36,489 nucleotides of DNA from Minisyncoccota bacterium (GTDB lineage Bacteria > Patescibacteriota > Minisyncoccia > Phycocordibacterales > Phycocordibacteraceae). Both the position numbers and the translations under genes were made by a program. The notes under the pieces are model-generated. The model was not told where the DNA came from, made no database searches, and was given only the letters and a program-made list of their open reading frames with translations. Shown piece after piece: positions 3,485 through 21,828 of the stretch (the stretch's first letter is position 1; each line of letters opens with the position of its first letter). The stretch is from positions 1 through 36,489 of the forward strand of contig DATLDL010000039.1 in assembly GCA_035525885.1 (NCBI GenBank), read 5' to 3'.

Positions 3485-3925
3485 ATGATGTCCCGCGTCG
3501 CCACGCTGTATTACGCGATTGAAAAACGCTATCCGCGGCTTACCAAGATCGCGCGGTACTTAGTGTCCGGGGGCACTGCCGCCACCGTTGATCTCGTCTT
3601 GCTCTACGCGTTTACGGAGTGGGCCGACCTTTGGTACCTGCTTTCTTCCGTTCTCGCTTTCATCATTGCGTTTGGTGTGAGTTTCGTACTTCAAAAATTT
3701 TGGACGTTCCAGGATCATGACAAAGAGAATATGCATGTGCAGGCCGGCGTGTATCTGGCTGTCGCGGTTATGAACCTCACTCTCAATACCTTCCTCGTCT
3801 TTTTCTTCGTCCAGCATTTCGGATTCCATTATCTGTTCGCGCAGATCTTCACGAGCGCGCTCATTGCCGTTGAAAGCTTTTTTGTCTACCAGCGCTTCAT
3901 CTTTAGAACACCCACCACTGCATGA
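3485..3925 (+). CDS. GtrA-family membrane protein (putative polyprenyl-phosphate-sugar flippase component)
   Basis: 146 aa with about 4 hydrophobic helices. The motif YLVSGGTAATVDLVLLYAFTEW is typical of the GtrA-like family. A TATACT box lies at 3462-3467. Confidence 0.8.
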   Translation: MMSRVATLYYAIEKRYPRLTKIARYLVSGGTAATVDLVLLYAFTEWADLWYLLSSVLAFIIAFGVSFVLQKFWTFQDHDKENMHVQAGVYLAVAVMNLTLNTFLVFFFVQHFGFHYLFAQIFTSALIAVESFFVYQRFIFRTPTTA

Positions 3926-5607
3926 GGGTTCGACTTTTCCCGCTCCTCATACTGATCGGCATACTGTTCGTAGCGTTGCGATTGCCAGGACTGGATCTGC
4001 CGTATCACCAGGATGAGTGGAAAAATGTTGCGGCCGCAGCAGATCCTGCGTCAGGCGCGTACTGGGCACACCCGCCTCTTTTCCAGGTCCTTTTTCGTGC
4101 CGGGAGTGCGATCACCGGACCAGATGCTTTTCGACTCCTCCCGCTTCTCTTTTCGCTCGGGTGTTTTGCGTTGCTCTATCTCGTCGTGAAAGCGCGAGCA
4201 GGAACACGTGCCGCGCTTTTCTCGCTCCTTTTCTTTGCGCTCTGTTTTTATAACGTGCTCGGTTCTCTCATGCCTGACGTTGATGGCGCCATAATTCCTT
4301 TTTTCTTTCTATTGTCTGTCTATTACTACGACCGCTACATGCATGCGCCGGATCCTCGCAAGAACCGATTTCTTGCGCTCCTCCTCCTGTCGCTCATGCT
4401 CGGTTTCTTGGTGAAGCTTAATTTTGTACTTGTCATTGGAACGCTCCTGCTCGATTATCTCTGGAATCAGCGCCACTCACTCACACGCAAGCGACTGACT
4501 ATGTTTGTGGGTGGAGGAATTGCCTTTGGCGGTGCCTATGTCGCGCTCTTGTATGTCATTCAGGCCATCTATCCGTCTTTTACGATTGCTGCAATGATCG
4601 GGCACGCCGATCAGTTTGCTCCCGGGCAAGAGCGACAGTATCTGCAGATTGCAGTACAGAGCATCAAGGCCGTCTACTATCTCTCGCCGCTCCTCATTCT
4701 CCCGCTTCTCCTTGTATCGAAGCGCGTCGCGGCGCAGGTAACACCCTTTCTCATCTATCTCGTTTCAGGCCTTTTCTTTTATCTCGTGCTCTTTGATTTT
4801 TCTCGCGGCGCGCTCGACAAGTATTTAATGTTTCTCATCGTACCGCTCTGCGTCGTCGTCGGGACGTTATTCGCGGACGTGTTTGCGCAACGAGAAGTGC
4901 AGGAGGGTGGCGTGTGGAAGGGAATCCGCGGCGCAGTGGGTCTTGGAGGCGCACTTTCAATGGCATTAATTGCGTTGAATTTCATACCGCACGAGGTGGC
5001 AGCGCTCTATCCCAAAACGGAGTGGTTCGCGCGCATCGTGCACGGGCAGTGGAATGTACTGACGCCGCTTACCGGCGGCTCGGGCCCGCTCGGTTTCTAC
5101 GTGTCGTTCCTGTTCATTGCCGTCTCGTATGGTGGTGCAGCACTCATTCTTATTGCTGCGAACATACGACCCGAGTGGCAACGAAGCGCCCTCAGCATGT
5201 TGTTTGTGATCGCCATTGCCTATAACGGCATCTTTCTCGAAGAGCTTATGTGGGGACGCATCAACGGCAATGCGCGCGCGGTAGTGCGAGATACTGTGGC
5301 ATATGTTGCGCAGGATGCGTCTATCAAAAAAGTACTGACCTATAACGACAGCGGTGCCGGTCTGCTTGAGGGGGCAGGTAAGTACGGCGGGCGCTTTTAC
5401 GCCACGCCCTCTTTCGAAGAAGGGCATAAAGAGAAGTTTGCGGCCTTTGAAGGCGCGTATATGGTCGTCGACATTCCACATCTCTATGAAAATGGCTTTT
5501 ACGCACAGTTCTTTGCCAACTGCACCGTGCTCCATGAGACCGTATCTGGTCGAATAACAGGACGCGTGTATGATTGCAGGAACGCGAAAGCGCTTCTCAC
5601 GCAATGA
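3922..5607 (+). CDS. polytopic membrane glycosyltransferase, GT-C fold candidate (ArnT/PMT, GT39/GT83-like)
   Basis: 561 aa with more than 10 hydrophobic segments. An acidic DE pair follows the first TM segment (LPGLDLPYHQDEWKNV), as in ArnT/PMT enzymes. It has an ATGA overlap with the GtrA gene. Confidence 0.65.
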   Translation: MRVRLFPLLILIGILFVALRLPGLDLPYHQDEWKNVAAAADPASGAYWAHPPLFQVLFRAGSAITGPDAFRLLPLLFSLGCFALLYLVVKARAGTRAALFSLLFFALCFYNVLGSLMPDVDGAIIPFFFLLSVYYYDRYMHAPDPRKNRFLALLLLSLMLGFLVKLNFVLVIGTLLLDYLWNQRHSLTRKRLTMFVGGGIAFGGAYVALLYVIQAIYPSFTIAAMIGHADQFAPGQERQYLQIAVQSIKAVYYLSPLLILPLLLVSKRVAAQVTPFLIYLVSGLFFYLVLFDFSRGALDKYLMFLIVPLCVVVGTLFADVFAQREVQEGGVWKGIRGAVGLGGALSMALIALNFIPHEVAALYPKTEWFARIVHGQWNVLTPLTGGSGPLGFYVSFLFIAVSYGGAALILIAANIRPEWQRSALSMLFVIAIAYNGIFLEELMWGRINGNARAVVRDTVAYVAQDASIKKVLTYNDSGAGLLEGAGKYGGRFYATPSFEEGHKEKFAAFEGAYMVVDIPHLYENGFYAQFFANCTVLHETVSGRITGRVYDCRNAKALLTQ

Positions 5608-6872
5608 CTACCGCATCGCACCATCCGTTCTGGAAGCGCTACTACTATAGCTATCTCGAGTCGTTTCTCGGCTTTTTGGTTCCCGTCGGATCGCAGGTCT
5701 ATACCGTCGAGCCATCAACAACTGCACCGCACCGAGCTATGTTCCCGACCTCTCAGTATGAATATATCGTTGCTTCAGACGTACTTGGAAATACACCTGA
5801 TATTGTCGAATTTCTGCAGAGTGCACGTCGCGCACTTACTGACGACGGCAGAGTAGTACTCACGCAATACAGCGCGCTCTGGGAGCCCATCCTGCGTCTT
5901 GCCACCACGCTCGGTTGGCGTCGAGCCGTGGTCGAGCAGAACTGGCTCTCAATGTATGATCTCTATAATTTTTCGCATCTGGCGGGATTTGACGTGGTGA
6001 AGTCAGGCAAAAAGATGCTGATCCCGATTTACATTCCACTCATCTCAACATTTTTTAATACCGTCGTCGCAAATATCTGGCCATTTACCCACTTTTGCTT
6101 ATTCCATTACGCCGTGTTGCGTAAGGCACAGCGACCAGGGTTGATCAAAAATCCGTCGTTCTCCATCATTGTTCCGGCTCGTAATGAAGCGGGGACCATA
6201 GAAAAGATCGTTACGGAGTTATCCAACGTTGGCGCCTATACAGAAATCGTCTTTGTCGAAGGAAATTCAACTGATAACACCTATGCCGAAATAGAGCGAG
6301 TGGCTGCGAAGTACGGTACGAAGAGGAAAATTATCTACGCAAAACAGACAGGAAAAGGGAAGGGAGATGCAGTGCGAAAAGGATTCGACCTGGCCACGGG
6401 AGATATTCTCTCCATTTATGACGCTGATATGACCGTGCCGGCGGGAGAGATGCAAAAATTCTATGAAGCGCTTGTTGCCGATAAGGGAGATTTCATAAAC
6501 GGATCGCGTCTCGTATATCCGCTTGAAAAAGATTCCATGCGCGTCCTCAATTTCTTTGCGAATAAATTTTTTAGTCTCGCATTCAGTTGGATTTTGGGTC
6601 AACCGCTGAAAGATACTCTCTGCGGAACAAAAGTATTGTGGAAGAGAGACTACGTGCGCATACAGGCAGGCCGCTCTTTTTTTGGCGACTTTGATCCGTT
6701 CGGCGACTTCGATCTGCTCTTTGGCGCGGCAAAACTCAATCTGAAAATCATCGATCTGCCCATTCACTACCAGGAGCGGGTATATGGCGCCACCAACATT
6801 AGCCGGTGGAAGCACGGATGGCTTTTGTTGAAGATGACTCTATTTGCTGCACGCAAAATCAAATTTATTTAA
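5604..6872 (+). CDS. GT2 glycosyltransferase (Dpm1/GtrB-like) with an N-terminal degenerate class I methyltransferase-like domain
   Basis: GT2 motifs are FSIIVPARNEAGTIEKIV, VFVEGNSTDNTYAEI and SIYDADMTVP, with a C-terminal TM segment. The N-terminal ~190 aa keep post-motif-I methyltransferase features (YEYIVASDVLGN, ALTDDGRVVL) but have no GxGxG loop. I placed the start at ATG 5604 (ATGA overlap with the upstream stop) rather than at the track start 5574. Confidence 0.8.
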   Translation: MTTASHHPFWKRYYYSYLESFLGFLVPVGSQVYTVEPSTTAPHRAMFPTSQYEYIVASDVLGNTPDIVEFLQSARRALTDDGRVVLTQYSALWEPILRLATTLGWRRAVVEQNWLSMYDLYNFSHLAGFDVVKSGKKMLIPIYIPLISTFFNTVVANIWPFTHFCLFHYAVLRKAQRPGLIKNPSFSIIVPARNEAGTIEKIVTELSNVGAYTEIVFVEGNSTDNTYAEIERVAAKYGTKRKIIYAKQTGKGKGDAVRKGFDLATGDILSIYDADMTVPAGEMQKFYEALVADKGDFINGSRLVYPLEKDSMRVLNFFANKFFSLAFSWILGQPLKDTLCGTKVLWKRDYVRIQAGRSFFGDFDPFGDFDLLFGAAKLNLKIIDLPIHYQERVYGATNISRWKHGWLLLKMTLFAARKIKFI

Positions 6873-6878
6873 TCCACT

Positions 6879-7619
6879 ATGACCAACAACACTGAACGAA
6901 TTAGTCACGAGATTGAACACGGCAAAAAATTGCTTGCCGATGGTGCGGAAGATGTATGGAATTGGGCAAGTCCGGCAGGGAAGATGCGCGCCGATCGTCG
7001 CGTCGCGTATTTGGTCGAGAAAGGGCATATCACTGCTGCTGATAAAGTCCTTGAAATCGGGTGCGGCACCGGACTTTTCACGCGCAAAATGGCAGAGCGG
7101 ACTGGTGCAGATATTACCGGCGTCGACATCTCGCCTGATTTACTTGCGGTTGCCAGAAAGAACGCCACCGCTCCGCGAGTTCAGTTCGTGGAAGGAAACG
7201 CCATGCAACTACCGTTTCCAGATGGTGCATTCGATGTGGTGTATGGCAGTTCAGTACTCCATCATCTTGATTTCGACCAATCATTGGCAGAACTATTCAG
7301 AGTACTCAAACCTGGCGGCCGCATGGTCTTTGGAGAACCCAACATGCTCAATCCTCAGATTTTCGTTCAAAAGAATGTCCCCATCATCAAAAAGTGGGCC
7401 GGAGACTCTCCAGACGAAACCGCTATCGTTCGTTTTACGTTTGCGCGCCGTATGCAAAAAATCGGATTCTCACACATCCACATCATTCCGTACGACTTCT
7501 TGCACCCTGCCATTCCCGCAGCTCTCATTCCGTTTTTTGATACGGTAGGGAAGACCATTGAGCGCATCCCGCTCCTCAAAGAAATTGCCGGTTCAGTCAT
7601 TATTTACGGTGAAAAATAG
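6879..7619 (+). CDS. class I SAM-dependent methyltransferase (Methyltransf_11-like)
   Basis: SAM motif I is VLEIGCGTGLFTRKMA. The acidic motif II is ITGVDIS. The later motifs are AFDVVYGSSVLHHL and LKPGGRMVFGEPN. Confidence 0.9.
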   Translation: MTNNTERISHEIEHGKKLLADGAEDVWNWASPAGKMRADRRVAYLVEKGHITAADKVLEIGCGTGLFTRKMAERTGADITGVDISPDLLAVARKNATAPRVQFVEGNAMQLPFPDGAFDVVYGSSVLHHLDFDQSLAELFRVLKPGGRMVFGEPNMLNPQIFVQKNVPIIKKWAGDSPDETAIVRFTFARRMQKIGFSHIHIIPYDFLHPAIPAALIPFFDTVGKTIERIPLLKEIAGSVIIYGEK

Positions 7620-7649
7620 TGCTTACAAACTCGCGTTTTTCTGATTTCG

Positions 7650-7658
7650 TGGTATATT
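7650..7658 (+). promoter_or_regulatory. candidate extended -10 promoter (TGgTATATT) for the DUF218-like gene
   Basis: TGGTATATT at 7650-7658. The downstream SD AAAGGAG at 7691-7697 precedes GTG 7704. Confidence 0.35.
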
Positions 7659-7703
7659 CACTTTAGATATGAACACATGGCCTTGCCATGAAAGGAGTGT
7701 GTC

Positions 7704-8237
7704 GTGCGAGAGAAAATTATCCTGCCTTTAACTAAAAGTGCGTGGCCGGGCGGTCGAGTTGGGTCGCTATATCTGCAGGACTGGTATCAGGGACTCCTCA
7801 AAGCAGTCGAGCTTGTCCGAGAATCGGCGGGGCCTGCCTTCGTCCTCATTTTGAGTGCGGTGCAGACTCCTCCCGAACCATCGGAAGTTGATGTCTATCT
7901 CACAGCTCTGAACGAGCTTGGCGTCGACGTGAACGATTTCATGGTGATTCGTGAGGAGGTAGAAACCATCGGGCAGTTGGAGTATGCAAATCGACTTGCA
8001 CAAGCTCGTGGAGCACGTCTCATTGTTATCTCAACATGGACTCACTACCCCCGCGTTCGGTGGCTGTGCCGAGGAAGGCAGTTCGAACATCACTGTGTGT
8101 GGGGTATTCCGCGTCCGCGGGAAGCGGTCACCGATATCGTCCTCTGGCTCGTCTTCCCGATACTCGACTCAATTCCTGGTGGCCGTGACTGGTTTCTCCG
8201 CAAAGTGCACGTTCATCGTAAAAGTGGAAAGTTTTAA
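7704..8237 (+). CDS. DUF218 / YdcF-ElyC-SanA-like protein (tentative)
   Basis: 177-aa ORF with a GTG start 6 nt after the strong SD AAAGGAG. RLIVISTWTHYPRVRWL resembles the conserved (S/T)xxxHxxR stretch of DUF218 proteins. The family call rests on recollection, not a search. Confidence 0.5.
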   Translation: MREKIILPLTKSAWPGGRVGSLYLQDWYQGLLKAVELVRESAGPAFVLILSAVQTPPEPSEVDVYLTALNELGVDVNDFMVIREEVETIGQLEYANRLAQARGARLIVISTWTHYPRVRWLCRGRQFEHHCVWGIPRPREAVTDIVLWLVFPILDSIPGGRDWFLRKVHVHRKSGKF

Positions 8238-8254
8238 ACAACATGCTCATTGAA

Positions 8255-8284: not shown

Positions 8285-8303
8285 GCATATGATACAGAAA
8301 AAC

Positions 8304-8331: not shown

Positions 8332-8388
8332 ATGATTAGGCTCGCCCGTGCGACTAAATACCCATTTCCTCAACAGGGAGAATTGCAA

Positions 8389-9045
8389 GTGAAAAAGCTG
8401 ATCTGGATTGCTGCCTTTTCGATGGCCGCCTTTCTCGATTTTGCAATCGGAACGTTCATTGCTGCCGTTGTCGGCAAAGTAATGAATGTACCGGTGACCT
8501 GGTGGCACCTCGCTATTGCAGGTGTCGTGGCGCTTTCTCCCGACATGCTTCAGATCGTGAATTCAAAACTCACGAAGCAAGAAGCATTTGGCGGTTTGCA
8601 TCACGAGACCTGGGATCATTGGCCCATACCCCTCATGTTCGTGGGTGGACTCGTTGGCTCGGTGTGTGGCGGAGGGTATTGGGCCATCACGGTCTTCCTG
8701 TGCCTCTTCTTCCACTTCACGCATGACATGGAAATCGGAAACACGGGCGGCATTGCGTTCTTTGCGCCGTTCGAGCGCGATCGGTACTTTGCGTGGTGGC
8801 GCGGGTTTTACGACCCCGCTACTTCTGCAATGTTCCGGCCGGAGAACCAGCTCGACCCATGGATCCGTGAAAACTGGCTCTGTCCCAGCCGCATGTCGCT
8901 GATCGAGCTTTCCCTTGGGATGCTGGCACTCTCGATCGCAGCCCATTTGGTTTTGGGAACGGTCGTCGCAGAAGCGCTGCTTGCCGCAGTTGCTGCAGGG
9001 ACTATCGGAGTCTGGTTTCTGGCTGCGCGACTCAACATGACCTAA
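8389..9045 (+). CDS. integral membrane protein, possibly a YdjM/DUF457-type membrane-bound metal-dependent hydrolase
   Basis: The ORF is in frame with track ORF 8332-9045. I chose GTG 8389 because SD GGGAGA (8376-8381) lies 7 nt upstream and the promoter -10 abuts ATG 8332. It has several TM helices and His/Asp-rich motifs (HHETWDHWPIP, HFTHDMEIGNTGGIAFFAPF). The family assignment is tentative. Confidence 0.5.
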   Translation: MKKLIWIAAFSMAAFLDFAIGTFIAAVVGKVMNVPVTWWHLAIAGVVALSPDMLQIVNSKLTKQEAFGGLHHETWDHWPIPLMFVGGLVGSVCGGGYWAITVFLCLFFHFTHDMEIGNTGGIAFFAPFERDRYFAWWRGFYDPATSAMFRPENQLDPWIRENWLCPSRMSLIELSLGMLALSIAAHLVLGTVVAEALLAAVAAGTIGVWFLAARLNMT

Positions 9046-9073
9046 TCCGAAGCCTTGCAGGTAAAGGCAATAC

Positions 9074-9102: not shown

Positions 9103-9119
9103 TATCCCCATGACACCCG

Positions 9120-9132: not shown

Positions 9133-10572
9133 ATGGCACTCACCACTATTCAGAAGGTGTTGTTACTAGGTCTTACAGGAGCTGCTGTTTTCTTCGCTAC
9201 CTATCACCTTACTGAAAGCCCGCCGTTTACGTTTGACGAAGGGTGGTACTTCCAGACAGCCGCAAATCTGGTCACGGCCAATGTGGAAGGCATTCAGCTT
9301 GCTCCGGGCGATATCGAGCACGTCTCTACCTTTGTCACGGTCGGGTATCCGCTCATCTATCCTCTCGCGCTCTGGTTCAAACTCTTCGGTATAAGTGTAC
9401 TCAGCGCTCGAAGTCTCATGGTGCTTTTCATTCTCCTGTTCCTCATAACAAGTTACGTGCTCGCCCGCAAACTGTGTGGTGTTGCTACGGCACTTGCAGC
9501 GCTCGCACTCCTCGCGACCTTTCCTCCGCTGTATGGGAATGGGAAACCTGTGCTTGGGGAAGTGCCAGGACTACTCTATCTCGTGCTATCGCTCTTGTGT
9601 TTGTATCAGGCGAGAACACACACGCTCCACAAAACGTTTTGGATTATCCTTACGGGCATCAGTGTCGGGCTTTGTATTGTTACGAAACCGCTTTTCCTCA
9701 TCATGGCGCCAGCGCTTCTGGCAGGTGTGTATGGCGAATGGAAAAAGAATATCTTTACGCTTCGCGATATCGGCATTGGTTTTTTGAGCACGCTTGCCCC
9801 TATCGCCGCGTGGGTCGTGGTGCAGTTTCGATCAAGCGACTCTTTTTCTACCGTGCTCTCGTACTATGCAAATCCATACAATACGCAACTCTCGACTACC
9901 ATTTTGCATAACCTCGGCGGCCTCTTTTCGGACGTAAATACCTTGTATACGGTTGGGATCGCGTTCGTTTGGGCTGCAGCGCTCTGGGTGAGACGTACGG
10001 CGCAGGAGGATATTCCATCCGAAGAACGTATCGCTTTTGTTTTTGCAATGCTGGTCATACTCGCGTATTTACGTACAGGGGGTTTTTATCGCTACTTGTT
10101 TCCGGCGCAAGCGGTCATGCTTATCTTCTTTCCGCACGCGCTTATGCGCATAAGCATGTTCGCGCATTCATTTTTTCCGCGCCTTCAGTCGCGCCTCGTG
10201 GCCATGAGTTTCATAACCCTGCTCGGCATGCTCGGTTCTTATCAAGTCCTGTTCCATTCGTGGGTTGCTGAAGCATATACGAGCCAAAAGACAGCGTTTT
10301 GGGAGTCCTACTTGAGCGAAGTATCGACTACGACCAGTATCTTTTTCTATAACGCGCCTGAAGTTGCGGCGTTCGCACCACACAGAAATTACTATCAATA
10401 CATTGAAAACTTCGGCAGATCGATCGGTGCGGATCAGCGCACGGCTATTACAGCCGGAACCGTCGATAGGATCATCATTCAAACGGGCTGGTACATTCCT
10501 ACTGATCCGCTTTTCAAAAAATATACGACTGACCGCACGGCTTATAAATACTCGGTCTTACGGCTTCGGTAG
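9133..10572 (+). CDS. polytopic membrane glycosyltransferase, GT-C fold candidate (ArnT/PMT-like)
   Basis: 479 aa with about 11-12 hydrophobic segments. A DE pair follows TM1 (ESPPFTFDEGWYFQTA). A soluble C-terminal tail is present. Confidence 0.65.
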   Translation: MALTTIQKVLLLGLTGAAVFFATYHLTESPPFTFDEGWYFQTAANLVTANVEGIQLAPGDIEHVSTFVTVGYPLIYPLALWFKLFGISVLSARSLMVLFILLFLITSYVLARKLCGVATALAALALLATFPPLYGNGKPVLGEVPGLLYLVLSLLCLYQARTHTLHKTFWIILTGISVGLCIVTKPLFLIMAPALLAGVYGEWKKNIFTLRDIGIGFLSTLAPIAAWVVVQFRSSDSFSTVLSYYANPYNTQLSTTILHNLGGLFSDVNTLYTVGIAFVWAAALWVRRTAQEDIPSEERIAFVFAMLVILAYLRTGGFYRYLFPAQAVMLIFFPHALMRISMFAHSFFPRLQSRLVAMSFITLLGMLGSYQVLFHSWVAEAYTSQKTAFWESYLSEVSTTTSIFFYNAPEVAAFAPHRNYYQYIENFGRSIGADQRTAITAGTVDRIIIQTGWYIPTDPLFKKYTTDRTAYKYSVLRLR

Positions 10573-13834: not shown

Positions 13835-14875
13835 ATGAAAATCTGCTGGTTCGGTATCTATAACCCAGACTTCTCACGAAATCAGATCTACATCCGCGGT
13901 CTGCGCGTAAATGACGTTACGGTTCTCGAATGTGCTGATCGCAGTCCTGGGCTTCGCAAATACCTCCGGCTGTGGCAGAAACACCGCGCACTGCAGGGGA
14001 ATTACGATGCGCTCGTTGTCGGCTATCCTGGTCATCTCGTCGTACCGTTTGCCAAACTACTTTCCAGAAAACCAGTAGTCGCTGACCTGCTCGGCTCGCT
14101 TGCTGATGCCGAGCAGCACTCGCATATGCCAAGCCGCATACGATTGCTCAAAAGCCGCATTGCCGACTGGTGTGCCGTGCATTTTGCCGATCTGGTACTG
14201 CTTGAAAGCGAGGCGCAAAAACGCTATTTCGAAGAGCGATTTGGCCCGTCTGGCAAATATCGTGTCCTCTATACGGGCGCCGACGATAGCGTCTTTTACT
14301 GTGACTCTTCATCTTCAGGCACACCACGCACTGTTTTGTTTCGCGGCCGCCTGACTCCCGAATGCGGCATTTTGCATATCCTTGAGGCGGCACGTCTATT
14401 GAAAAATGAGCACAATATTCGTTTCCGCGTGCTTGGCTCAGGGCCGCTACTTGCTGTGGCACAGGCATACATTCAGACACACGCTCTTGAGAACGTGGTG
14501 TTGGTTACTGAGTATCTTTCTGGGGAAGCACTGCGAACACATATCTGTGACGCATCGCTCGCGCTTGGGCAATTCGAACACAATCCACGCCTCTCACGCA
14601 CCATTCCTCACAAAGCATTTGAAGCGTTCGCGATGGGTATTCCGTACCTGACGGGAAATGGGGAAGCCGTGTGCGAAATTGTGCAGGAGCGCGAAACCGG
14701 CTTCCTGGTCCCGCTCGGGGATCCCGCGCAGCTCGCAGAAAAAATACGCTCTCTTATGCACGAGGATCACATACGTTTGAGCGTTGCGGCAAAAAGCAGA
14801 CAGCTTTTTGCCGAACAATTCGCACCTGCCGTACTTGCGCGAAAATTAGTCTCGCTGCTTGCGGAACTTACTTAA
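13835..14875 (+). CDS. glycosyltransferase, GT-B fold (GT4/GT1-like)
   Basis: 346 aa, starting 4 nt after the upstream stop. The C-terminal donor-binding region is PHKAFEAFAMGIPYLTGNGEAVCEIVQERETGFLV. Confidence 0.8.
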   Translation: MKICWFGIYNPDFSRNQIYIRGLRVNDVTVLECADRSPGLRKYLRLWQKHRALQGNYDALVVGYPGHLVVPFAKLLSRKPVVADLLGSLADAEQHSHMPSRIRLLKSRIADWCAVHFADLVLLESEAQKRYFEERFGPSGKYRVLYTGADDSVFYCDSSSSGTPRTVLFRGRLTPECGILHILEAARLLKNEHNIRFRVLGSGPLLAVAQAYIQTHALENVVLVTEYLSGEALRTHICDASLALGQFEHNPRLSRTIPHKAFEAFAMGIPYLTGNGEAVCEIVQERETGFLVPLGDPAQLAEKIRSLMHEDHIRLSVAAKSRQLFAEQFAPAVLARKLVSLLAELT

Positions 14876-15480
14876 CAGCAAAGCAGAGGAAACCGCTCGT
14901 TTGTTCGCTCGCGTCTTTGCCAAACAGGCGATCAATCCACTCAAAGAAACGAGTCCTTTTGGTGAAGACTGGAATAAGGTTCATGGCGGTCGCAAGCGCA
15001 CCGCGTTCACCCACCATTTCTATGGAAGAAAAGTCACGCATGAGATAGGCAAGCCCGTCGCGTGTAAATCGGTAGAAGTCTTGGTAATACCCCTTTTCCG
15101 GATGATAGTAAAAAATAAAAGGTATTTTCACGAGGCAGTATCCGCCCTTTTTCAGAACGCGATGCATCTCCCGAGCAGCTTGTTGCGGTTCTTCGACGTG
15201 CTCAAGCACATCAAGACAAAGGATCGCTTCCACAGAGTCACTCGGCAGGGGTAAACGTATGAATGTCTCCGACGATGTCGGGATGATAATCCGGCACTTT
15301 GTCGAGAATCTTGTAGTCCTTGCCTGCGGCAAGCGGCACGGCCCATGGATGCATCACGCCTCGATTGTTCCGCTTCGGATCAATTTTCAATCCGCCACCG
15401 ATATCAATGATCTCGTGTTTCTCAGTAAAGATTTTGCATATCTTTTCCCTGAAAAATAATTCATCTCGCCTCATGCTCAT
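14868..15480 (-). pseudogene. class I SAM-dependent methyltransferase interrupted by a single-nucleotide frameshift (pseudogene or assembly error)
   Basis: Two overlapping minus-strand ORFs (15238-15480 and 14868-15332) each carry half of one methyltransferase. They encode IIDIGGG...PDIVGDIH and LPLPSDSVEAILCLDVLEHV...LKKGGYCLVKIP. Removing one base from the AAA/TTT run at 15253-15255 joins them as GDIHTLPLPSDSVEAI. Confidence 0.75.
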
Positions 15481-16181
15481 GCACGTATAAATAACGCGTC
15501 CTCAAACAATATGGCTCCCGTGACCGGATCGCGCTTTTGATGGAGTGCGCCCCGATACGAAAATCCGGCATCTTTCATGAGCGTGTACACGCGATCAAAC
15601 AGCGGCTGGCCTTCATACAAGCGTACGAATGATGCTTCAAGCAGTGCCACTTTCGTTTGCGCGAGCGTTGCAGGTCCTCCTGCAAGCACCTGCTCCTCAT
15701 ACCCCTGTGCATCTATTTTTAAGAGCACGTTCGGTGCCAGCGGTAGACCGGCAAGCGCATCGTCCATACATTCAATGCGAATCGTCTCATCGACGCCGCC
15801 TTTGGTGTGCGGGAATAGATCGGTATGGAGCTTTTCCATAGGAAGCAGGGAAGAGCTCGGACTGTAGCTGCTGCGGTGGATGGTAGCCGTGCCGGATGTT
15901 TCGCCAAGCGCAGTATTAAACGCATGAAAGTTCGCATCGCCCTTCATGCGCGCCGTGAGTTCGGCAAAACAATCCGGAAGCGGTTCAAAAGAGTACATGG
16001 TCGCGTCAGGCAGAAGTGCCCGTACTTCCTGCGCAAATTGACCAACATTCGCACCCACGTCGATGATGGTTTTAATGTCGAGTGTTGTGAGAATGGCGAG
16101 TGGCTCAGGGCTGGCATGGTGCCGATGCACGTCAATGCCGATTTGATTCAGTGCACGGCGCACAGGGTGTCGAGAGCTCAT
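15477..16181 (-). CDS. FkbM-family methyltransferase
   Basis: 234 aa. IIDVGANVGQFAQEV and FEPLPDCFAEL match the FkbM-domain pattern. It has 4-nt overlaps with both neighbouring genes. Confidence 0.85.
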   Translation of the reverse strand: MSSRHPVRRALNQIGIDVHRHHASPEPLAILTTLDIKTIIDVGANVGQFAQEVRALLPDATMYSFEPLPDCFAELTARMKGDANFHAFNTALGETSGTATIHRSSYSPSSSLLPMEKLHTDLFPHTKGGVDETIRIECMDDALAGLPLAPNVLLKIDAQGYEEQVLAGGPATLAQTKVALLEASFVRLYEGQPLFDRVYTLMKDAGFSYRGALHQKRDPVTGAILFEDALFIRA

Positions 16182-17275
16182 GCCGCAAAACGATTAAGGG
16201 CTGCAATGACGTACATAACTTCCTCGTCAGTCAGCTCAGGAAAAAGTGGAAGAGACAGCACTTCCTGTGCGGCGTGCTCACTTTCCGGCAGATCGCCCGC
16301 CTTGTATCCCAAGAATTCATACGCTTTTTGGAGGTGAATAGGGAAAGCGTAGTGCGTGCCAAATCCGACGCCGGCCTCAGTGAGATGTTTTTGAAGCGCG
16401 TCGCGATGCTTGGTCCGTATCACGAATAAGTGAAAGACATGCGTCGAATCCGGCCGAAGTTTCGGCAACGTAATCAGCGGATTTTGTATTTCGGTGAGGT
16501 ATCGAGTGGCAATCTCTCTACGGCGTCCGTTCCAGGTATCAAGGTGGGGAAGCTTCACGCTAAGGACTGCGGCCTGCACTTCATCCATACGGCTGTTGTA
16601 GCCCTCGATGTCGGCGAAATACGTTTTAGCCATCCCATACATGCGCAGTTTTCGGCAGGTGGCGGCAAGCGCTTCGCTACTGGTGAGAATCATGCCGCCA
16701 TCGCCATACGCGCCCAAGTTTTTAGTCGGATAAAAACTGAAACAGCTTATGGCGCCGAACGTGCCGGCGGTCTTGCCCTTGTACGTCGCTCCCGTTGTTT
16801 GAGCGCAATCTTCCACGACGGGAATCTCATGTCTGGTAGCGACCGTCATGACCGCTTCGATATCGACTGGTTGACCATAGAGATGGACTGCGACGATCGC
16901 TTTCGTGTTCGATGTGATTTTCCCTTCAAGCTTGTTCGGATCCATGCCGAAATAGTCATCACTGTCCACAAAGACAGGAATCGCTCCACGCTCGCGTATG
17001 GCGCTTACGGTCGGGACTGCGGTGTTAGTAACTGTAATGACTTCATGTCCCGGTCCAACACCCAGTGCGGCAAGTGCGATTTTAAGTGCATCGGTGCCAG
17101 AGTTAACCGCAATGCCATGCGCAGTGCCAATGTATTTTGCAAAAGACTCTTCAAAATGCAGCGTCTCGTTTCCAAGTACAAATTTTCCAGACTCGAACAC
17201 GCGTGCCGCTGCGGCCATCATTTCTTCATGCAGCGTGGCGTATTGGCGCGTGGCGTTAAAGACGGGCACATTCAT
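16178..17275 (-). CDS. DegT/DnrJ/EryC1/StrS-family PLP-dependent sugar aminotransferase (FdtB/QdtB/TylB-like)
   Basis: 365 aa. DALKIALAALGVGPGHEVI is present. The PLP-lysine context is FSFYPTKNLGAYGDGG. Confidence 0.9.
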   Translation of the reverse strand: MNVPVFNATRQYATLHEEMMAAAARVFESGKFVLGNETLHFEESFAKYIGTAHGIAVNSGTDALKIALAALGVGPGHEVITVTNTAVPTVSAIRERGAIPVFVDSDDYFGMDPNKLEGKITSNTKAIVAVHLYGQPVDIEAVMTVATRHEIPVVEDCAQTTGATYKGKTAGTFGAISCFSFYPTKNLGAYGDGGMILTSSEALAATCRKLRMYGMAKTYFADIEGYNSRMDEVQAAVLSVKLPHLDTWNGRRREIATRYLTEIQNPLITLPKLRPDSTHVFHLFVIRTKHRDALQKHLTEAGVGFGTHYAFPIHLQKAYEFLGYKAGDLPESEHAAQEVLSLPLFPELTDEEVMYVIAALNRFAA

Positions 17276-17694
17276 ACTTTTTTCTCTGCGACGATGCGTT
17301 TGAAGTCCTCATAGGAGCGAATGTAATCCTTTTCGTCGTAGGTGCGATCCGCGATCACCATGAGCGTCGTATCAGGAAGGAACGTGTGCATGACATGCCA
17401 CACATATGGGTACAGTAACAATCCCTGATTGGGCGTGGTCAATACCACATCTTCCTTGTGTTCGCCGTCGTCAAGTTCAACGGTGCATCCGCCGGAGATG
17501 GCGACGAGGATCTGGTTCGTCTCGTAGTGTGTATGGGCGCCGCGGCGGTCGTTCCCGTTCATGCCTTTGGTGATGAGGACGCGTTTGGGAGTGAAAGGGA
17601 GCGCATCCGGTACTTCCTGGAACATGTAGAGCACACCGTTTTTAGTATCCGAAGACGGGAACGTAATGAGTTCGTACGGAGGTTTATGATCCAT
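17272..17694 (-). CDS. WxcM/FdtA-like cupin, dTDP-4-keto-6-deoxyhexose 3,4-ketoisomerase candidate
   Basis: 140 aa, the size of FdtA/QdtA. The RGxHxH motif is present in RRGAHTHYETNQILVAISG. The gene sits between the dehydratase and the aminotransferase. Confidence 0.8.
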   Translation of the reverse strand: MDHKPPYELITFPSSDTKNGVLYMFQEVPDALPFTPKRVLITKGMNGNDRRGAHTHYETNQILVAISGGCTVELDDGEHKEDVVLTTPNQGLLLYPYVWHVMHTFLPDTTLMVIADRTYDEKDYIRSYEDFKRIVAEKKV

Positions 17695-18679
17695 AAAAGA
17701 TTTTTTCTAGTCCGAGTTTTCGGGCAATCGAGCGCTTTTTCCCGACGCCCATCTTGCGCGTCCGCTCTTCGTTTTGTGCTTTGCAGATGGGGAGGTATTG
17801 CTCAAGCGTCATGGTTGGCTTCCACCCCAGCGCTTGTATCTTCGTCGTATCGACGGAGTAGCGGATGTCTTGCCCGGGACGATCGCCTACGTACTCGAAG
17901 AAGTCGGACGGACGGCCCATAATTTCAAGAATGCGCTGCACGACGTCTAGATTCGTTCGTTCCTCACAACTTGAAATATTGTAAATTTCTCCATCAAGTC
18001 CATTTTCCATAACCAGGAGAATTGCCTCGCAGTTGTCATTCACGAACGTCCACTCGCGTTTGTAGAGGCCGGTCCCATATACCGCTGCCTTCTGGCCCTT
18101 CTGCGCACGCTTCATGGTGTTCGGAATGAGTTTCTCTGCGCGCTGACCGAAACCATAGTTATTGCTTGGACGACAGAGGCGTGCGCGGAGGTTATAGGTA
18201 CGTGCCCATGCAAACACGAGCTGATCTGCAGCGGCCTTCGTAGCAGAGTACGGATTCGACGGCTTCAGACGATCGCTTTCTGTAAACGAACCTTCAGCAA
18301 TGTCGCCATACACTTCATCCGTTGAGATTTGTATAAAGACGGGGCGCTGTGCCGGTTCTATTTTTCGCACAAGCTCAAGCAAAGTATAGACTCCTTCAAC
18401 ATTTGAACGGAAAAAAGGGCTACTGTTTTTTATGGAATTATCGACGTGCGACTCGGCAGCAAAGTTCACCACATGCGTAATGTGCCGGGGAAGCGCTTTC
18501 AAATCACAAATATCGCTCACGACTAATTCGTAGTTTGGGTGTTTCTCGAACTCAAGATCTTCTCGGATGGCGTACGTTTTCTTGTCGACGTTAATCACGT
18601 AGTACCCCTTATCAAGAAGGAGTTGTACAAAATGACTGCCGATAAACCCGAGACCTCCCGTAACGAGAATGCGCTGCAT
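17684..18679 (-). CDS. rfbB: dTDP-glucose 4,6-dehydratase
   Basis: The Rossmann motif is ILVTGGLGFIGSHF. ISTDEVYG and the YxxxK motif YSATKAAADQLV are present. I placed the start at ATG 18679 (MQRILVTGG). The track start 18688 lies inside a perfect TATAAT box. Confidence 0.9.
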   Translation of the reverse strand: MQRILVTGGLGFIGSHFVQLLLDKGYYVINVDKKTYAIREDLEFEKHPNYELVVSDICDLKALPRHITHVVNFAAESHVDNSIKNSSPFFRSNVEGVYTLLELVRKIEPAQRPVFIQISTDEVYGDIAEGSFTESDRLKPSNPYSATKAAADQLVFAWARTYNLRARLCRPSNNYGFGQRAEKLIPNTMKRAQKGQKAAVYGTGLYKREWTFVNDNCEAILLVMENGLDGEIYNISSCEERTNLDVVQRILEIMGRPSDFFEYVGDRPGQDIRYSVDTTKIQALGWKPTMTLEQYLPICKAQNEERTRKMGVGKKRSIARKLGLEKIFYGS

Positions 18680-18686
18680 CGCCGGC

Positions 18687-18692
18687 ATTATA
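18687..18692 (-). promoter_or_regulatory. candidate -10 box TATAAT, 7 nt upstream of rfbB ATG 18679 (leaderless-type)
   Basis: The minus strand reads TATAAT-GCCGGCG-ATGCAGCGC. No convincing -35 box is present. Confidence 0.45.
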
Positions 18693-18718
18693 CTATAAAA
18701 AACCGAACTTTTTAGAAT

Positions 18719-19708
18719 TTAGTTTCGTTTCAAAATGGCCTTAACAAGGGATTTTAGATAGTAGAAAGAAGTGAATACTAATTCGCTATACCAGCTTGGT
18801 CGGGGAAGGGTCCCACTCGTAAAGTCTGGTCGGATTTTGCGGATGTCGGTCATTGCCTGATACATCGCATGCGCATAGGGGCGGTATAATAGCTTCTTCT
18901 CGATTGAGGGCACGATGTAGAGACTGGGCGGTCCCCATGGTAGCCACGACGAAGGCGGCCAATACAGCTTAAAGCGAGAAAAGTGGAAGAAGATCAATGG
19001 GTCACCATCTATAAACACCGAGTCTCCTTTTTTTGTAATTCTGCCCGCATAGGCCTCGATATTCCACGACGCCAAGTTCACTCCTTTCCACGGAAGCACC
19101 CACACCCCTTTGAATTTTTCTTCAAAGTAATCCAAATATTTCTGATCGCCAAAACGAGTCGGTTCGACTTGGTCATAGCACCATTCGAGGCAGCGCTCTT
19201 TCCACCAGTTCAAACATGCACGCGCATTCGCATCGTTGTTGAAAATGAGCATACCGACATTGTATTTACCGACCTCTGCTTCACGCTTTGCGGCGTCCCC
19301 ATGGAGGCGGTGGGGAATGATCATGACGGAGTGTCCGGCACATGCTTCGTATATCGGCTCAATGGAAGCGTAATAGAACAAGTCACCGTCAACGTAGGTG
19401 ACCGTCTCGGCATCTGGATTTCTTTGAAGCACGTACCACGTGCTCCAGGCACTTAACGTCCAACAGTATTCAACAAAGGTACGGGTCTTTTTAACTGCCT
19501 TGAGCTCGTCGTCTTCAAATTCTGCCATTGAAACCGCTTTCAGGTGCGGAAGATTCATTGTGGTCAGAATTTCATGCGTCTCGTCATCCATGCAGAGCAC
19601 CCAAAAGGTAAATGGTGTGCTGCAATTTGCCGCAATAGATCGATACAGGCAGAGTCCTCTATTCAGGAATCCTTTATCAAACAAGGTGACGAAATGTCGT
19701 TTAGGCAT
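18719..19708 (-). CDS. nucleotide-diphospho-sugar transferase, GT-A fold candidate (GT8-like)
   Basis: 329 aa. The N-terminus HFVTLFDKGFLNRGLCLYRSI and a DxD-like VTYVDGDLFYY suggest a GT-A enzyme. It is Trp-rich and visibly more AT-rich than its neighbours. The family call is tentative. Confidence 0.5.
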   Translation of the reverse strand: MPKRHFVTLFDKGFLNRGLCLYRSIAANCSTPFTFWVLCMDDETHEILTTMNLPHLKAVSMAEFEDDELKAVKKTRTFVEYCWTLSAWSTWYVLQRNPDAETVTYVDGDLFYYASIEPIYEACAGHSVMIIPHRLHGDAAKREAEVGKYNVGMLIFNNDANARACLNWWKERCLEWCYDQVEPTRFGDQKYLDYFEEKFKGVWVLPWKGVNLASWNIEAYAGRITKKGDSVFIDGDPLIFFHFSRFKLYWPPSSWLPWGPPSLYIVPSIEKKLLYRPYAHAMYQAMTDIRKIRPDFTSGTLPRPSWYSELVFTSFYYLKSLVKAILKRN

Positions 19709-21020
19709 GGGCTGGAGGTGTCGATTCTACTGAGGAATATGACCGTGCAAGAAGATGGTACAGGAGAATGAAGAAGATCGTTGTTGAAGCAAGCCCGATC
19801 GCCATACGAGCCCACGAGTCATACGGTACGTGCGTAAATCGTGGCAACAGGTAGAGAAAGAAGAGGTTGAGTGCATTTAAAACACCAAGAGCATAGCCCG
19901 CATAGAGCACGAGTCGGTCGCGAAGCCATGCACCAAGCACTATGGTCGCCATGAATCCAAAGTAGAAATGGTTCTCGTGCGCGCTTGTGGTGAGATAGGG
20001 AACCGCGATAGGAACAAAAAGTAGAGTCAGTGCCACGAGTTCTTCAAGGGAATGTGTGTTTTCTGCGATTTTTGTAATAAACAGTCCAATAACAACAAGT
20101 AAGATGAAAAGACTAAGCGAGCGATACGAAACGCCAAACAGCGTGCTGGTATCTGTGACCCGATAAATAGGTTGACCAGGACTTCGCACATAATTTGCGA
20201 CAAAAAACCACGCATTCGGCATGTTCGCGTTTAGTGCGGGCATAACGTCAGGAACATGCGCATAATGGGCAATTAAGAATGAGCTGTTGGCGATGAATTC
20301 GCTCATGCGTGCTGATACCCCATGCTGCTCAAGGGCAGTAGCTATGTTCGTCAGCGTATGATGATTCTCGATCTTCAGACTTAGTCCGAAATAGATCGAA
20401 AACAGAACGACAAGGGTGAGTGGTGCCAGAGCGAGAGCCGCAAGACGTCCTGCGCCCGCTTGTCGCTTAAAGAGAAGAACGACAAACAGGAGACCCAATC
20501 CTATGAAAAGAGGAATCGCTTGCGGCTTCATCAGCAGTGCTACCCCAAGCGGAATGCCTGCCGTAAGCCAAGAACGCACACCCGATGCTTTGGTGATAAG
20601 CCAGAGTGCAAGCAGTATGAAAAATGAGAACTGCGGATCAACGTAGCCCTGTTGAGACAGGAAAAAGTGGAAGGGGTTTAACCAGTAGAGTCCTACCACA
20701 ATCCACGGCGCAAGACGTTTACGTGTGAGTGCGACAAGGAGCGTCAGTGTTCCGATTTCGAACAAGAGCGTAACGATCTTAATGCCGTATTCGAACGTGA
20801 CGAGTCCCTGCGCATGCAGAGAGGACACACCCGCAAAGATAAGGTACTGGATAGGGAAGTACACGCCATCAAATGACTCGGCAAGTCCGCTCGTATACGT
20901 GCGGTCCCCCCAACGCTCGTAGCTTACAAGGTCCGATGATCCTGGAGTCGGCAGGAGACAGAGACGTACGATAAGGCCTATAAAAAAGAGGATAAACGCA
21001 AGACGCTTGGCGGTGAGCAT
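19701..21020 (-). CDS. polytopic membrane protein, GT-C-like candidate (DUF2029/GT87-type)
   Basis: 439 aa with about 11-12 hydrophobic helices. The first loop contains an acidic residue (PGSSDLVSYERWGD). It overlaps the downstream GT-A gene by 8 nt. Confidence 0.5.
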   Translation of the reverse strand: MLTAKRLAFILFFIGLIVRLCLLPTPGSSDLVSYERWGDRTYTSGLAESFDGVYFPIQYLIFAGVSSLHAQGLVTFEYGIKIVTLLFEIGTLTLLVALTRKRLAPWIVVGLYWLNPFHFFLSQQGYVDPQFSFFILLALWLITKASGVRSWLTAGIPLGVALLMKPQAIPLFIGLGLLFVVLLFKRQAGAGRLAALALAPLTLVVLFSIYFGLSLKIENHHTLTNIATALEQHGVSARMSEFIANSSFLIAHYAHVPDVMPALNANMPNAWFFVANYVRSPGQPIYRVTDTSTLFGVSYRSLSLFILLVVIGLFITKIAENTHSLEELVALTLLFVPIAVPYLTTSAHENHFYFGFMATIVLGAWLRDRLVLYAGYALGVLNALNLFFLYLLPRFTHVPYDSWARMAIGLASTTIFFILLYHLLARSYSSVESTPPAHA

Positions 21021-21026
21021 ATGCGC

Positions 21027-21035
21027 AGTATCACA
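21027..21035 (-). promoter_or_regulatory. candidate extended -10 (TGtGATACT), 6 nt upstream of ATG 21020 (leaderless-type)
   Basis: The minus strand reads TGTGATACT-GCGCAT-ATG. Confidence 0.4.
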
Positions 21036-21105
21036 TATTTTCCGGGTCTACCGAACCGCAAAAAGAGCACAATATGGGATATACTTGCGGCAACCAAACG
21101 GCCCT

Positions 21106-21828
21106 ATGTATCGCACTAAAAAGGTAAGTGTCGTCATTCCCACCTATAACGAGGCAGGAAGCATTCGCGCGGTGATTGACGGCTTCTTTGCGACCGGTTT
21201 TGTGGATGAAATAATCGTGGTCGATAATAACGCCAAAGACCCTACCAAGGCAGAAGTAGCAAAAACCAATGCGCGTCTTGTCGAAGAGAAAGAGCGTCAA
21301 GGGTACGGCCATGCCATCATGCGCGGCCTGACAGAGGCCACGGGCGACCTCATCGTTATGGTCGAAGCAGATGGAACGTTTGATCCAAACGACATTCATA
21401 AGTTTCTGCTGTACAGCGATCATTTTCCCGTGGTCTTTGGCACGCGCACCTCTCGTGCTGCCATCTGGTCGGGCGCCTTCATGCCGTTTCCCGTGCGCTT
21501 CGGGAACTGGGCGGTAGCGAAGGTGCTCGAGGTTTTGCATAACGGCCCGACGCTGACGGATGTCGGGTGCACATATAAATTGATTGATCGCGCATCGCTC
21601 GAACGCATCAAGAATTATTTCCCGCGCTCGCCAGGCGATGGGAAATTCTCTCCCGAACTCATGATCTGGTTGATTCGTACGCAAGCCGATAAGAATGTGC
21701 TTGAGATTCCGATCATGTACAAGCCGCGCGTGGGCACCTCGACCTATACCGGCAGCATTTGGAAGGCGGCCAAGCTTGGGTGTACCATGCTGCCACTCAT
21801 CTTCGCGTATCGCTTCAGGAAACTATGA
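21106..21828 (+). CDS. GT2 glycosyltransferase, Dpm1/GtrB-like
   Basis: Motifs are VSVVIPTYNEAGSI, IVVDNNAKDPT and VMVEADGTFD. I placed the start at ATG 21106. The track start 21007 overlaps the divergent gene. A TATACT box lies at 21080-21085. Confidence 0.85.
   Translation: MYRTKKVSVVIPTYNEAGSIRAVIDGFFATGFVDEIIVVDNNAKDPTKAEVAKTNARLVEEKERQGYGHAIMRGLTEATGDLIVMVEADGTFDPNDIHKFLLYSDHFPVVFGTRTSRAAIWSGAFMPFPVRFGNWAVAKVLEVLHNGPTLTDVGCTYKLIDRASLERIKNYFPRSPGDGKFSPELMIWLIRTQADKNVLEIPIMYKPRVGTSTYTGSIWKAAKLGCTMLPLIFAYRFRKL

Follow-up and report, generated by a model that had tools for sequence, protein, structure and literature searches.

The stretch analysed here, contig DATLDL010000039.1, comes from a metagenome-assembled genome (MAG) of an uncultured, ultra-small Candidatus Paceibacterota bacterium, a lineage of the Candidate Phyla Radiation (CPR), and the window considered throughout is the entire contig of 36,489 bp. 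Genes were assigned from the listing of open reading frames (ORFs) combined with Pfam and NCBIfam scans across the window, and the resulting map revealed a dense glycan locus, with Pfam domain E-values ranging from 1e-9 to 1e-33 for the listed features. Between positions 3485 and 21828 a gene for a GtrA-family protein is found together with four GT2 domains (here GT2_1 to GT2_4) and four polytopic membrane domains resembling GT-C glycosyltransferases (here GTC1 to GTC4), one of the latter being fused to a GT2 domain. This region is likely to be the core of a conserved Paceibacterota envelope glycan locus endowed with four parallel three-component glycosylation branches. The elements of these branches are the following.

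3485–3925, plus strand: GtrA-family small membrane protein (PF04138, E 2e-22, profile positions 1–117 of 117)
3922–5607, plus strand: GTC1, PMT_2/GT39-like GT-C protein of 561 aa (PMT_2, 37.6 bits against 26.1)
5604–6872, plus strand: GT2_1, methyltransferase-like region, hydrophobic segment and GT2 domain (PF00535, E 1e-21, residues 197–327; Methyltransf_23, E 2.4e-8, residues 34–143)
9133–10572, plus strand: GTC2, PMT_2-like GT-C protein of 479 aa (PMT_2, 38.0 bits against 26.1)
11348–12076, plus strand: GT2_2, short soluble GT2 of 242 aa (PF00535, E 2.5e-22)
12073–13830, plus strand: GT2_3–GTC3 fusion, GT2 at residues ~1–225 and PMT_2 at ~230–585 (PF00535, E 3.3e-33; PMT_2, 34.0 bits against 26.1)
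19701–21020, minus strand: GTC4, polytopic protein with a GT-C fold in its predicted structure and no sequence-family match
21106–21828, plus strand: GT2_4, short soluble GT2 of 240 aa (PF00535, E 2.5e-22)

The first-pass annotation, made from the letters and reading frames of this DNA, had proposed four GT2 units of the short Dpm1/GtrB type in this region. All four were recovered with PF00535 (E-values from 1e-21 to 3.3e-33) and, in the three cases where the longest ORF begins further upstream (5574, 11273 and 21007), an ATG is present at the proposed start (5604, 11348 and 21106, respectively). The short architecture does not hold, however, for GT2_1, where a hydrophobic segment and, ahead of it, a partial methyltransferase-like region come before the GT2 domain, which begins at about residue 197. 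Likewise, the motifs xIPxYNE, VVDxxSTDxT and DADxx that had been attributed to all four units are exact in GT2_2 and in the GT2_3–GTC3 fusion but not in GT2_1, which reads VPARNE, FVEGNSTDNT and YDADMT, nor in GT2_4, which reads IPTYNE, VVDNNAKDPT and VEADGT. The methyltransferase-like N-terminal region of GT2_1 (window positions 5604–6160) is kept in the orthologs of two related contigs, L085 and L087; since VYTVEPSTT replaces the glycine-rich motif expected for binding of S-adenosylmethionine (SAM), this binding has probably been lost.

AglJ was the top NCBIfam model for all four GT2 domains, with the haloarchaeal dolichyl-phosphate hexose transferase, ArnC, PgfS and PpgS models matching at lower and varying ranks; for GT2_4, the E-values were 2.8e-25 for AglJ and 4.5e-17 for the dolichyl-phosphate hexose transferase. 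The scores all lie under the equivalog cutoffs of these models, and what the GT2 domains display is therefore similarity at the family level only. In a sequence search of the PDB, the Pyrococcus furiosus DPMS (5mlz) came first for three of the four domains and tied first for GT2_4, with ArnC and GtrB also among the matches; GT2_2, for instance, matched DPMS with an E-value of 4e-14 over residues 8–178, followed by ArnC. An AlphaFold model of the GT2_3–GTC3 fusion was obtained with a mean predicted local distance difference test (pLDDT) of 86.8, and its top 25 Foldseek matches were all ArnC, DPMS or GtrB (E 1e-10 to 8e-7), soluble GT2 enzymes such as GpgS ranking after these 25. By similarity at this level, all four GT2 domains resemble polyprenyl-phosphate sugar synthases, although GT2_2 and GT2_4 are without a transmembrane segment.

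A grouping of the GT2s with processive synthases, the outcome regarded in the first-pass annotation as fatal to its own proposal, was not observed: NCBIfam, PDB sequence and Foldseek matches all favour the polyprenyl-phosphate sugar synthases. The processive-synthase models PgaC and NodC rank lower for most GT2 domains, and this assignment was rejected as they are outscored by the synthase-type models. As a separate observation, the nearest relatives of the GT2_3 domain (55–60% identity) are not GT-C fusions but fusions of a GT2 with a Methyltransf_11 domain, of ~518 aa, including P0037, P0039 and ~80 others; those carrying a source name belong mostly to Patescibacteria.

The four large polytopic domains expected from the first-pass annotation are present, with 11 hydrophobic segments in 3922–5607, 9 in 9133–10572, 7 in the C-terminal part of 12073–13830 and 8 in 19701–21020. 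Membership in GT39/PMT_2 (PF13231, Pfam gathering threshold 26.1 bits) was found for GTC1, GTC2 and GTC3 at the scores listed above, GTC4 giving no match. The GTC1 family counts 371 homologs, several of which are source-named "glycosyltransferase family 39 protein". In the PDB sequence search no match was obtained for GTC1, GTC2 and GTC4 even at E ≤ 1. The Foldseek list of the fusion is dominated by its GT2 half, and the GT-C assignment of GTC3 is that given by Pfam alone.

The two DE pairs previously noticed after the first transmembrane segment (TM1), YHQDEWKN in GTC1 and FTFDEGWY in GTC2, proved to be invariant in homologs. Positions Q30, D31, E32 and K34 of GTC1 are invariant among 30 homologs, D35, E36 and G37 of GTC2 among 5 orthologs, D258 and K400 of GTC3 among 19 homologs and D30, K165, H348 and H351 of GTC4 among 17 sequences. 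All four families hence share an invariant acid just past TM1 (D31/E32, D35/E36, D258 and D30) and an invariant lysine ~135–150 residues further on (K165 in GTC1, K185 in GTC2, K400 in GTC3 and K165 in GTC4), positions that appear to match the catalytic sites expected for GT-C enzymes. D258 is predicted to be extracellular because TM1 of the fusion comes after the cytoplasmic GT2 domain; for GTC1, GTC2 and GTC4, the positive charges at the N-terminus suggest that loop 1 likewise lies outside.

GTC4 was without any Pfam, NCBIfam or PDB sequence match, and its structure was predicted from 17 homologs. The model obtained (pLDDT 91.3, predicted TM-score 0.90) was compared with the PDB by Foldseek, and the top 20 matches were all GT-C enzymes or GT-C-like proteins. 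The best was GPI mannosyltransferase I (GPI-MT-I, where GPI is glycosylphosphatidylinositol; 9wno, E 2.3e-4, TM-scores 0.58/0.62), together with PimE (0.54/0.60) and ALG3 (0.53/0.60), and AglB, PglB, ALG9, DPY19 and Pmt4 were also among these 20; unrelated transporters started at rank 21, with TM-scores below 0.2. The likeness of GTC4 to PimE (GT87) and to GPI-MT-I (GT50) is one of fold, at 11–15% identity, and sequence membership in either family was not found. With PMT_2 matches for three of the domains, a predicted structure for GTC4 and invariant loop-1 acids in all of them, the GT-C fold and the conserved acid on which the earlier proposal depended are both in place.

A word-index search retrieved 18 relatives of GTC4, none with a Pfam domain, and all the named ones were from Parcubacteria/Patescibacteria. 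When searched with a profile, the family extended to 700 representatives at E ≤ 1e-3, 111 of them at E ≤ 1e-30, and 10 members sampled along the ranking gave no Pfam GT-C match. Judging from the predicted model, GTC4 is thus a member of a sizeable GT-C family lacking a Pfam model. Some distant members (P0323, P0351 and P0400) include C-terminal Calx-beta, hexapeptide acyltransferase or Methyltransf_11 domains.

The GtrA-family protein, which had been noted as a protein with four transmembrane segments, matches PF04138 over the full model; it is presumed to act as a flippase for polyprenyl-phosphate sugars, and its stop codon overlaps the start of GTC1. Physical links between the three components recur among homologs. 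The GT2–PMT_2 fusion is full-length in at least 15 proteins, split versions with a lone PMT_2 domain also existing, and in P0022 a GT2, a GtrA and a PMT_2 domain are found in a single chain. In the GTC1 family, both GtrA–PMT_2 and GT4–PMT_2 fusions are found, and contig L087 alone encodes a GT4–GtrA fusion in addition to three of the GT2–GT-C type.

These data bear on the possibility that the GT2s are ordinary cytoplasmic glycosyltransferases acting on a growing glycan and that the polytopic proteins are a polymerase, a transporter or an acyltransferase. Synthase scores far under the equivalog cutoffs, two GT2s lacking a transmembrane segment and a GTC4 without a sequence-defined family would all be compatible with it. 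We nevertheless hold it to be very improbable, given that DPMS, ArnC and GtrB consistently head both the sequence and the fold matches, that fusions of GT2 domains with PMT/PMT_2 and GtrA domains occur repeatedly, that the GT-C fold comes with an invariant loop-1 Asp and that GTC1 is overlapped at its start by a dedicated GtrA gene.

A scan of GTDB genomes with the alignment of the fusion returned mostly GT2-only relatives, spread over many phyla, and the membrane domain was found in two loci; synteny was therefore studied on contigs encoding close homologs, i.e., five related contigs (L001, L002, L085, L086 and L087) in 20-kb loci. GT2/GT-C pairs recur across the five at 40–78% identity: GTC4 comes with a GT2, GTC2 with GT2_2 and GTC1 with the methyltransferase-like GT2, and a GT4 follows the fusion. 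In particular, orthologs of GT2_1 (64–66% identity) adjoin those of GTC1 in L085 and L087, and the orthologs of GTC2 and GT2_2 are immediate neighbours in L001, L085 and L086; in L087, a GTC2 relative (41% identity) shares its chain with another GT2 domain. The GT4 gene at 13835–14875 lies beside the fusion in L001, L085 and L086 as well.

In the window GT2_4 is divergently oriented with respect to GTC4, and its ortholog in L002 (78% identity) also lies beside a GTC4 ortholog. The GT2 found beside the GTC4 ortholog in L001 (9265–9999) and in L086 (9268–9999) is only ~26–30% identical to GT2_4, and may represent a swapped synthase providing a different donor sugar. The weakly GT8-like gene directly adjoins GTC4 in L001 and L002, whereas in L086 it lies one gene away; its orthologs (33–40% identity) are present in L001, L002, L085 and L086. 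Taken with the domain identities, the GTC4 fold, the invariant residues and the fusions, these pairings support the view, put forward in the first-pass annotation, of up to four parallel GT2/GtrA/GT-C branches.

The remaining genes assigned in and around this region are listed below.

173–1300 and 1297–2427, plus strand: two GT4 glycosyltransferases (PF00534, E 1.4e-33 and 1.4e-26)
2457–3437, plus strand: YvcK-type (CofD-like) UDP-GlcNAc-binding protein (TIGR01826, 269 bits against a cutoff of 196)
6879–7619, plus strand: SAM-dependent methyltransferase (PF08241, E 1.1e-29)
7704–8237, plus strand: DUF218 protein (PF02698, E 2.6e-7)
8332–9045, plus strand: YdjM-like membrane protein (PF04307, E 7.7e-5, under cutoff)
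10558–11466, minus strand: SAM-dependent methyltransferase between GTC2 and GT2_2 (PF08241, E 2.3e-19)
13835–14875, plus strand: GT4 glycosyltransferase (PF00534, E 5.7e-22)
14871–15456, minus strand: frameshifted methyltransferase, with its N-terminal (15456–15259) and C-terminal (15254–14871) halves in different frames
15477–18688, minus strand: nucleotide-sugar block made of an FkbM-type methyltransferase (PF05050), a DegT aminotransferase (PF01041, E 1e-117), an FdtA 3,4-ketoisomerase (PF05523) and a dTDP-glucose 4,6-dehydratase (PF16363)
18719–19708, minus strand: weak GT8-like protein (PF01501, E 0.0028, under cutoff)
21759–22469, plus strand: methyltransferase (Pfam)
22456–23262, minus strand: TIGR04325 (LIC12133-type) methyltransferase (no Pfam hit; TIGR04325, 223.8 bits against a cutoff of 80)
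23253–24146, minus strand: weak GT2-like protein (Pfam)
24147–24845, minus strand: Methyltransf_24-like protein (Pfam)
24851–26146, minus strand: Wzx-like (MOP family) flippase (PF13440, 49 bits against 23)
26199–28370, plus strand: Wzy_C and TPR membrane protein (PF04932, 68.4 bits against 31.7, with TPR repeats)

The GT4 pair at 173–2427, presumed to act in cytoplasmic glycan assembly, has orthologs in L003 and L087, the first GT4 being fused to GtrA in the latter. The YvcK-type gene adjoins GtrA in L006 too, and its membership in the pathway is uncertain. The YdjM-like gene is present in L087 as well, and orthologs of most genes between 21759 and 24845 were found in L001, L002 and L086. Downstream of the Wzy_C–TPR gene follow MurB, SecA, Obg and GatB. 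The GC content is 0.50–0.57 along the contig and drops to ~0.45 at its end (34001–36000), around an HTH_17 gene.

Within the nucleotide-sugar block, the dehydratase scored 348.8 bits with TIGR01181, just under the cutoff of 365.1, and the FdtA homolog (17272–17694, minus strand) aligns to FdtA (2pa7) with an E-value of 1e-26 and keeps the three catalytic histidines. As these include the His that marks inverting isomerases, the block probably makes a sugar of the dTDP-3-amino-3,6-dideoxy-galactose (Fuc3N) type. Neither an FdtC/QdtC-type N-acetyltransferase nor an RmlA gene was found among the window ORFs scanned. Seven methyltransferase genes, one of them frameshifted, are found in ~18 kb, in addition to the degenerate domain of GT2_1, and this number suggests a heavily methylated glycan. 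The frameshift, near 15255, leaves either a pseudogene or an assembly error, and intact orthologs of 207 aa are present in L002 and L087. As for the methyltransferase at 10558–11466, no match to it was found between the GT2 gene and GTC2 in L001, L085 and L086, where these two genes adjoin; the longest ORF of this minus-strand gene overlaps the plus-strand start of GT2_2 head to head.

Regarding export, the scanned ORFs of the window contain no priming phosphoglycosyltransferase, no chain-length regulator and no ABC exporter, in agreement with what had been reported from the first reading of the sequence. Of a Wzx/Wzy-dependent pathway, the Wzx-like protein is present, and a phosphoglycosyltransferase and Wzz were not found in these ORFs; the Wzm and Wzt genes of an ABC-transporter-dependent pathway are absent from the window. 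In three of the related contigs, the position of the Wzx-like gene is held by Wzm/Wzt with Wzt_C, matched by the ABC2_membrane and ABC_tran/Wzt_C domains (3396–5451 in L001, 2075–4616 in L002 and 3348–5483 in L086), the remaining gene order being kept, and no ortholog of the Wzx-like gene was found there.

Orthologs of the Wzy_C–TPR protein are kept beside MurB in these same three ABC-transporter-type loci, where glycans are completed in the cytoplasm and no Wzy is needed; a role as polymerase was rejected on this ground, and the protein is the probable glycan ligase or O-oligosaccharyltransferase of the locus. The Wzx/Wzy_C block announced in the first-pass annotation thus stands as far as its two domains are concerned (PF13440 and PF04932), but the Wzy_C protein reads as a ligase and the relatives use Wzm/Wzt. 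The best NCBIfam match of the protein was a putative O-glycosylation ligase, a weak one, while the PDB search returned designed TPR proteins only, which do not help in choosing between ligase and polymerase. WsfB and PglL, both O-oligosaccharyltransferases, likewise combine Wzy_C with TPR (PMC2943079).

The nature of the export and ligase genes is relevant when asking what the GT-C enzymes act upon. One option is that they act outside the cell as elongating enzymes, building the main chain of a lipid-anchored glycan instead of decorating it. In mycobacterial lipomannan and lipoarabinomannan (LAM), the GT4 enzymes PimA and PimB prime the lipid, and the GT-C enzymes PimE and MptA/B extend it with polyprenyl-phosphate mannose supplied by the GT2 Ppm1. 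The locus similarly combines GT4s, GT2 synthases and GT-Cs with no phosphoglycosyltransferase, and the nearest folds of GTC4, i.e., PimE, GPI-MT-I and ALG3, are those of polyprenyl- or dolichyl-phosphate-mannose-dependent mannosyltransferases extending lipid-linked glycans. On the other side, Wzm/Wzt with Wzt_C in the relatives and a Wzy_C ligase-like protein in all of them are typical of glycans completed in the cytoplasm on undecaprenyl pyrophosphate, and the presence of four distinct GT2 synthases points to as many donor sugars and not to a homopolymer, which makes chain elongation by the GT-Cs quite unlikely in our opinion.

Alternatively, the GT2/GT-C pairs could attach single sugars to Ser/Thr residues of secreted or membrane proteins, independently of the glycan handled by the GT4, Wzx and Wzy_C proteins. 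Transfer of this kind from a polyprenyl-phosphate sugar is carried out by the actinobacterial Ppm1/Pmt system and by a streptococcal system acting on disordered regions rich in Ser/Thr. PMT_2, which takes its name from the protein O-mannosyltransferases, is the family of three of the GT-C domains, Pmt4 being also among the fold matches of GTC4. Moreover, no priming enzyme was found in the window that would link the branches to an undecaprenyl-pyrophosphate-linked glycan, and streptococcal GtrB-type systems are described as modifying Ser/Thr-rich regions of membrane proteins (PMC12041528). However, GT4, nucleotide-sugar, exporter and ligase genes are interspersed among the pairs, an arrangement kept in the five related contigs, and the GT4–PMT_2 and GT4–GtrA fusions join the GT-C branch to glycan-assembly enzymes. 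Since PMT_2 also includes ArnT-like enzymes acting on lipids and glycans, we consider such an independent protein glycosylation unlikely.

Returning to decoration of an envelope glycan by four branches, we infer from the domains, the GTC4 fold, the conserved residues, the pairings and the fusions the following enzyme activities, order of steps and acceptor, with one sugar per branch. A lipid-linked glycan would be assembled in the cytoplasm by the GT4s and other transferases, with a dTDP-Fuc3N-type sugar among the substrates, and carried across the membrane by the Wzx-like flippase or, in the relatives, by the Wzm/Wzt ABC exporter. At the cytoplasmic face, each of the four GT2s would charge polyprenyl phosphate with one sugar derived from a nucleotide sugar, and GtrA, or its fused equivalent in the relatives, would aid the flipping of these lipid-linked sugars. 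GTC1 to GTC4 would then each pass their own sugar to an acceptor outside the cell by means of the conserved Asp after TM1, and the Wzy_C–TPR protein would join the finished glycan to a final acceptor, maybe a protein or another envelope component.

Several observations weigh against this model. The GT2 scores lie far under the NCBIfam equivalog cutoffs, and GT2s with other acceptors, such as GpgS, turn up in the GT2 match lists. On the membrane side, the TM-scores of GTC4 are moderate (0.53–0.62) and E is below 1e-3 for one match only; the profile of stand-alone GTC3-domain homologs gave, against the PDB, only chance matches to Cas3-HD (E 0.23); and profile–profile links among the four GT-C families are weak (~10–13% probability), these comparisons having served only as a consistency check on the residue alignment. 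Furthermore, a single GtrA gene is present for four branches, and neither the window nor any of the five related 20-kb loci showed a priming phosphoglycosyltransferase, so that synteny alone connects the cytoplasmic block with the GT-C branches.

CPR bacteria, or Patescibacteria, represent a large share of bacterial diversity, and their envelope is uncharacterised in structure and assembly (PMC5220378). Neither CPR glycan loci nor GT2–GT-C fusions were specifically treated in the literature retrieved. If our reading holds, a genome-reduced lineage spends more than 25 kb on a heavily methylated, four-branch surface glycan, with a layout kept in related genomes. The locus supplies as candidates four synthase/transferase pairs, a GT-C family outside Pfam (at least 111 clusters at E ≤ 1e-30) and fusions of synthase, in some cases flippase, and transferase. 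As a speculation, surface glycans of this kind could plausibly take part in host attachment and phage recognition of these episymbionts.

It would be a bolder proposal, and one we regard as a long shot, that Paceibacterota assemble a large part of the envelope glycan extracellularly with self-contained enzymes, that the GT-C domain of a fusion devoid of GtrA itself aids the crossing of the membrane, and that GTC4 founds a new CAZy family. Were this true, GT2–GT-C and GT2–GtrA–GT-C fusions would make a polyprenyl-phosphate sugar inside and use it outside in one polypeptide, thus offering a simple system for studying the flipping of polyprenyl-phosphate sugars.

Among known systems, three-component extracytoplasmic glycosylation by GtrA, GtrB and GtrC is that of O-antigen glucosylation in Shigella and Salmonella (PMC11127046). 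The region shares with it a linked GT2 synthase, a small GtrA protein and a GT-C with an acid after TM1, but has four synthase/transferase pairs in one chromosomal locus, one of them fused, as opposed to one phage-borne set. GtrB carries C-terminal transmembrane helices, in contrast to the synthases GT2_2 and GT2_4. The host differs as well, being a CPR bacterium, and genes for lipid A and lipopolysaccharide have been reported absent from a related Parcubacterium (PMC5220378).

Multi-branch side-chain glycosylation is also known from the rhamnose-rich wall polysaccharides of Gram-positive bacteria, as in Lactococcus, in Streptococcus mutans SCC and in group A Streptococcus (GAS) GacI/GacL (PMC10821137, PMC11754754, PMC9574508). 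The likeness lies in several pairs of a GtrB-like GT2 and a GT-C with a presumably shared flippase, here four pairs and one GtrA. The window differs in its probable Fuc3N-type block, in the absence of rhamnan genes and in its many methyltransferases, as well as in having a Wzy_C–TPR ligase-like gene, no LCP-type ligase seen in the window scans, and one GT-C without a Pfam model.

The mycobacterial Ppm1/PimE/Mpt/Emb system for PIM, lipomannan and LAM resembles the locus in the feeding of several GT-Cs by a GT2 synthase, there one for polyprenyl-phosphate mannose, in the cytoplasmic GT4s and in the presence of PimE among the best fold matches of GTC4. Differences are that GTC4 has no GT-C Pfam match, that phosphatidylinositol-related genes are lacking and that a GT2 is here fused to a GT-C, whereas Ppm1 of Mycobacterium tuberculosis is fused to an Lnt-like domain.

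In its overall layout, the locus appears closest to the S-layer glycan (slg) clusters described in Paenibacillus alvei, Geobacillus stearothermophilus and Aneurinibacillus (PMC2943079). In P. alvei, the slg cluster includes Wzm/Wzt, the Wzy_C–TPR transferase WsfB and a branching glucose added via a separate lipid carrier by WsfH/WsfD (PMC2943079). No WbaP-type initiator, S-layer gene or FdtC/QdtC-type acetyltransferase was found, unlike in slg clusters, among the window ORFs scanned; moreover, a Wzx-like gene replaces the ABC exporter in the window, and there are four lipid-carrier branches as compared with one. Shared with the slg clusters are the Wzm/Wzt exporter (in the relatives of the window only), the Wzy_C (and TPR) transferase, methylation, which in slg takes the form of an O-methyl cap, and FdtA-type genes for Fuc3NAc. 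The scheme as such is the known three-component pathway; along with the absence of a priming enzyme from the window and related loci, what is distinct here is its occurrence in a CPR host, with four branches per locus, a fused synthase/transferase and a GT-C family for which Pfam holds no model.

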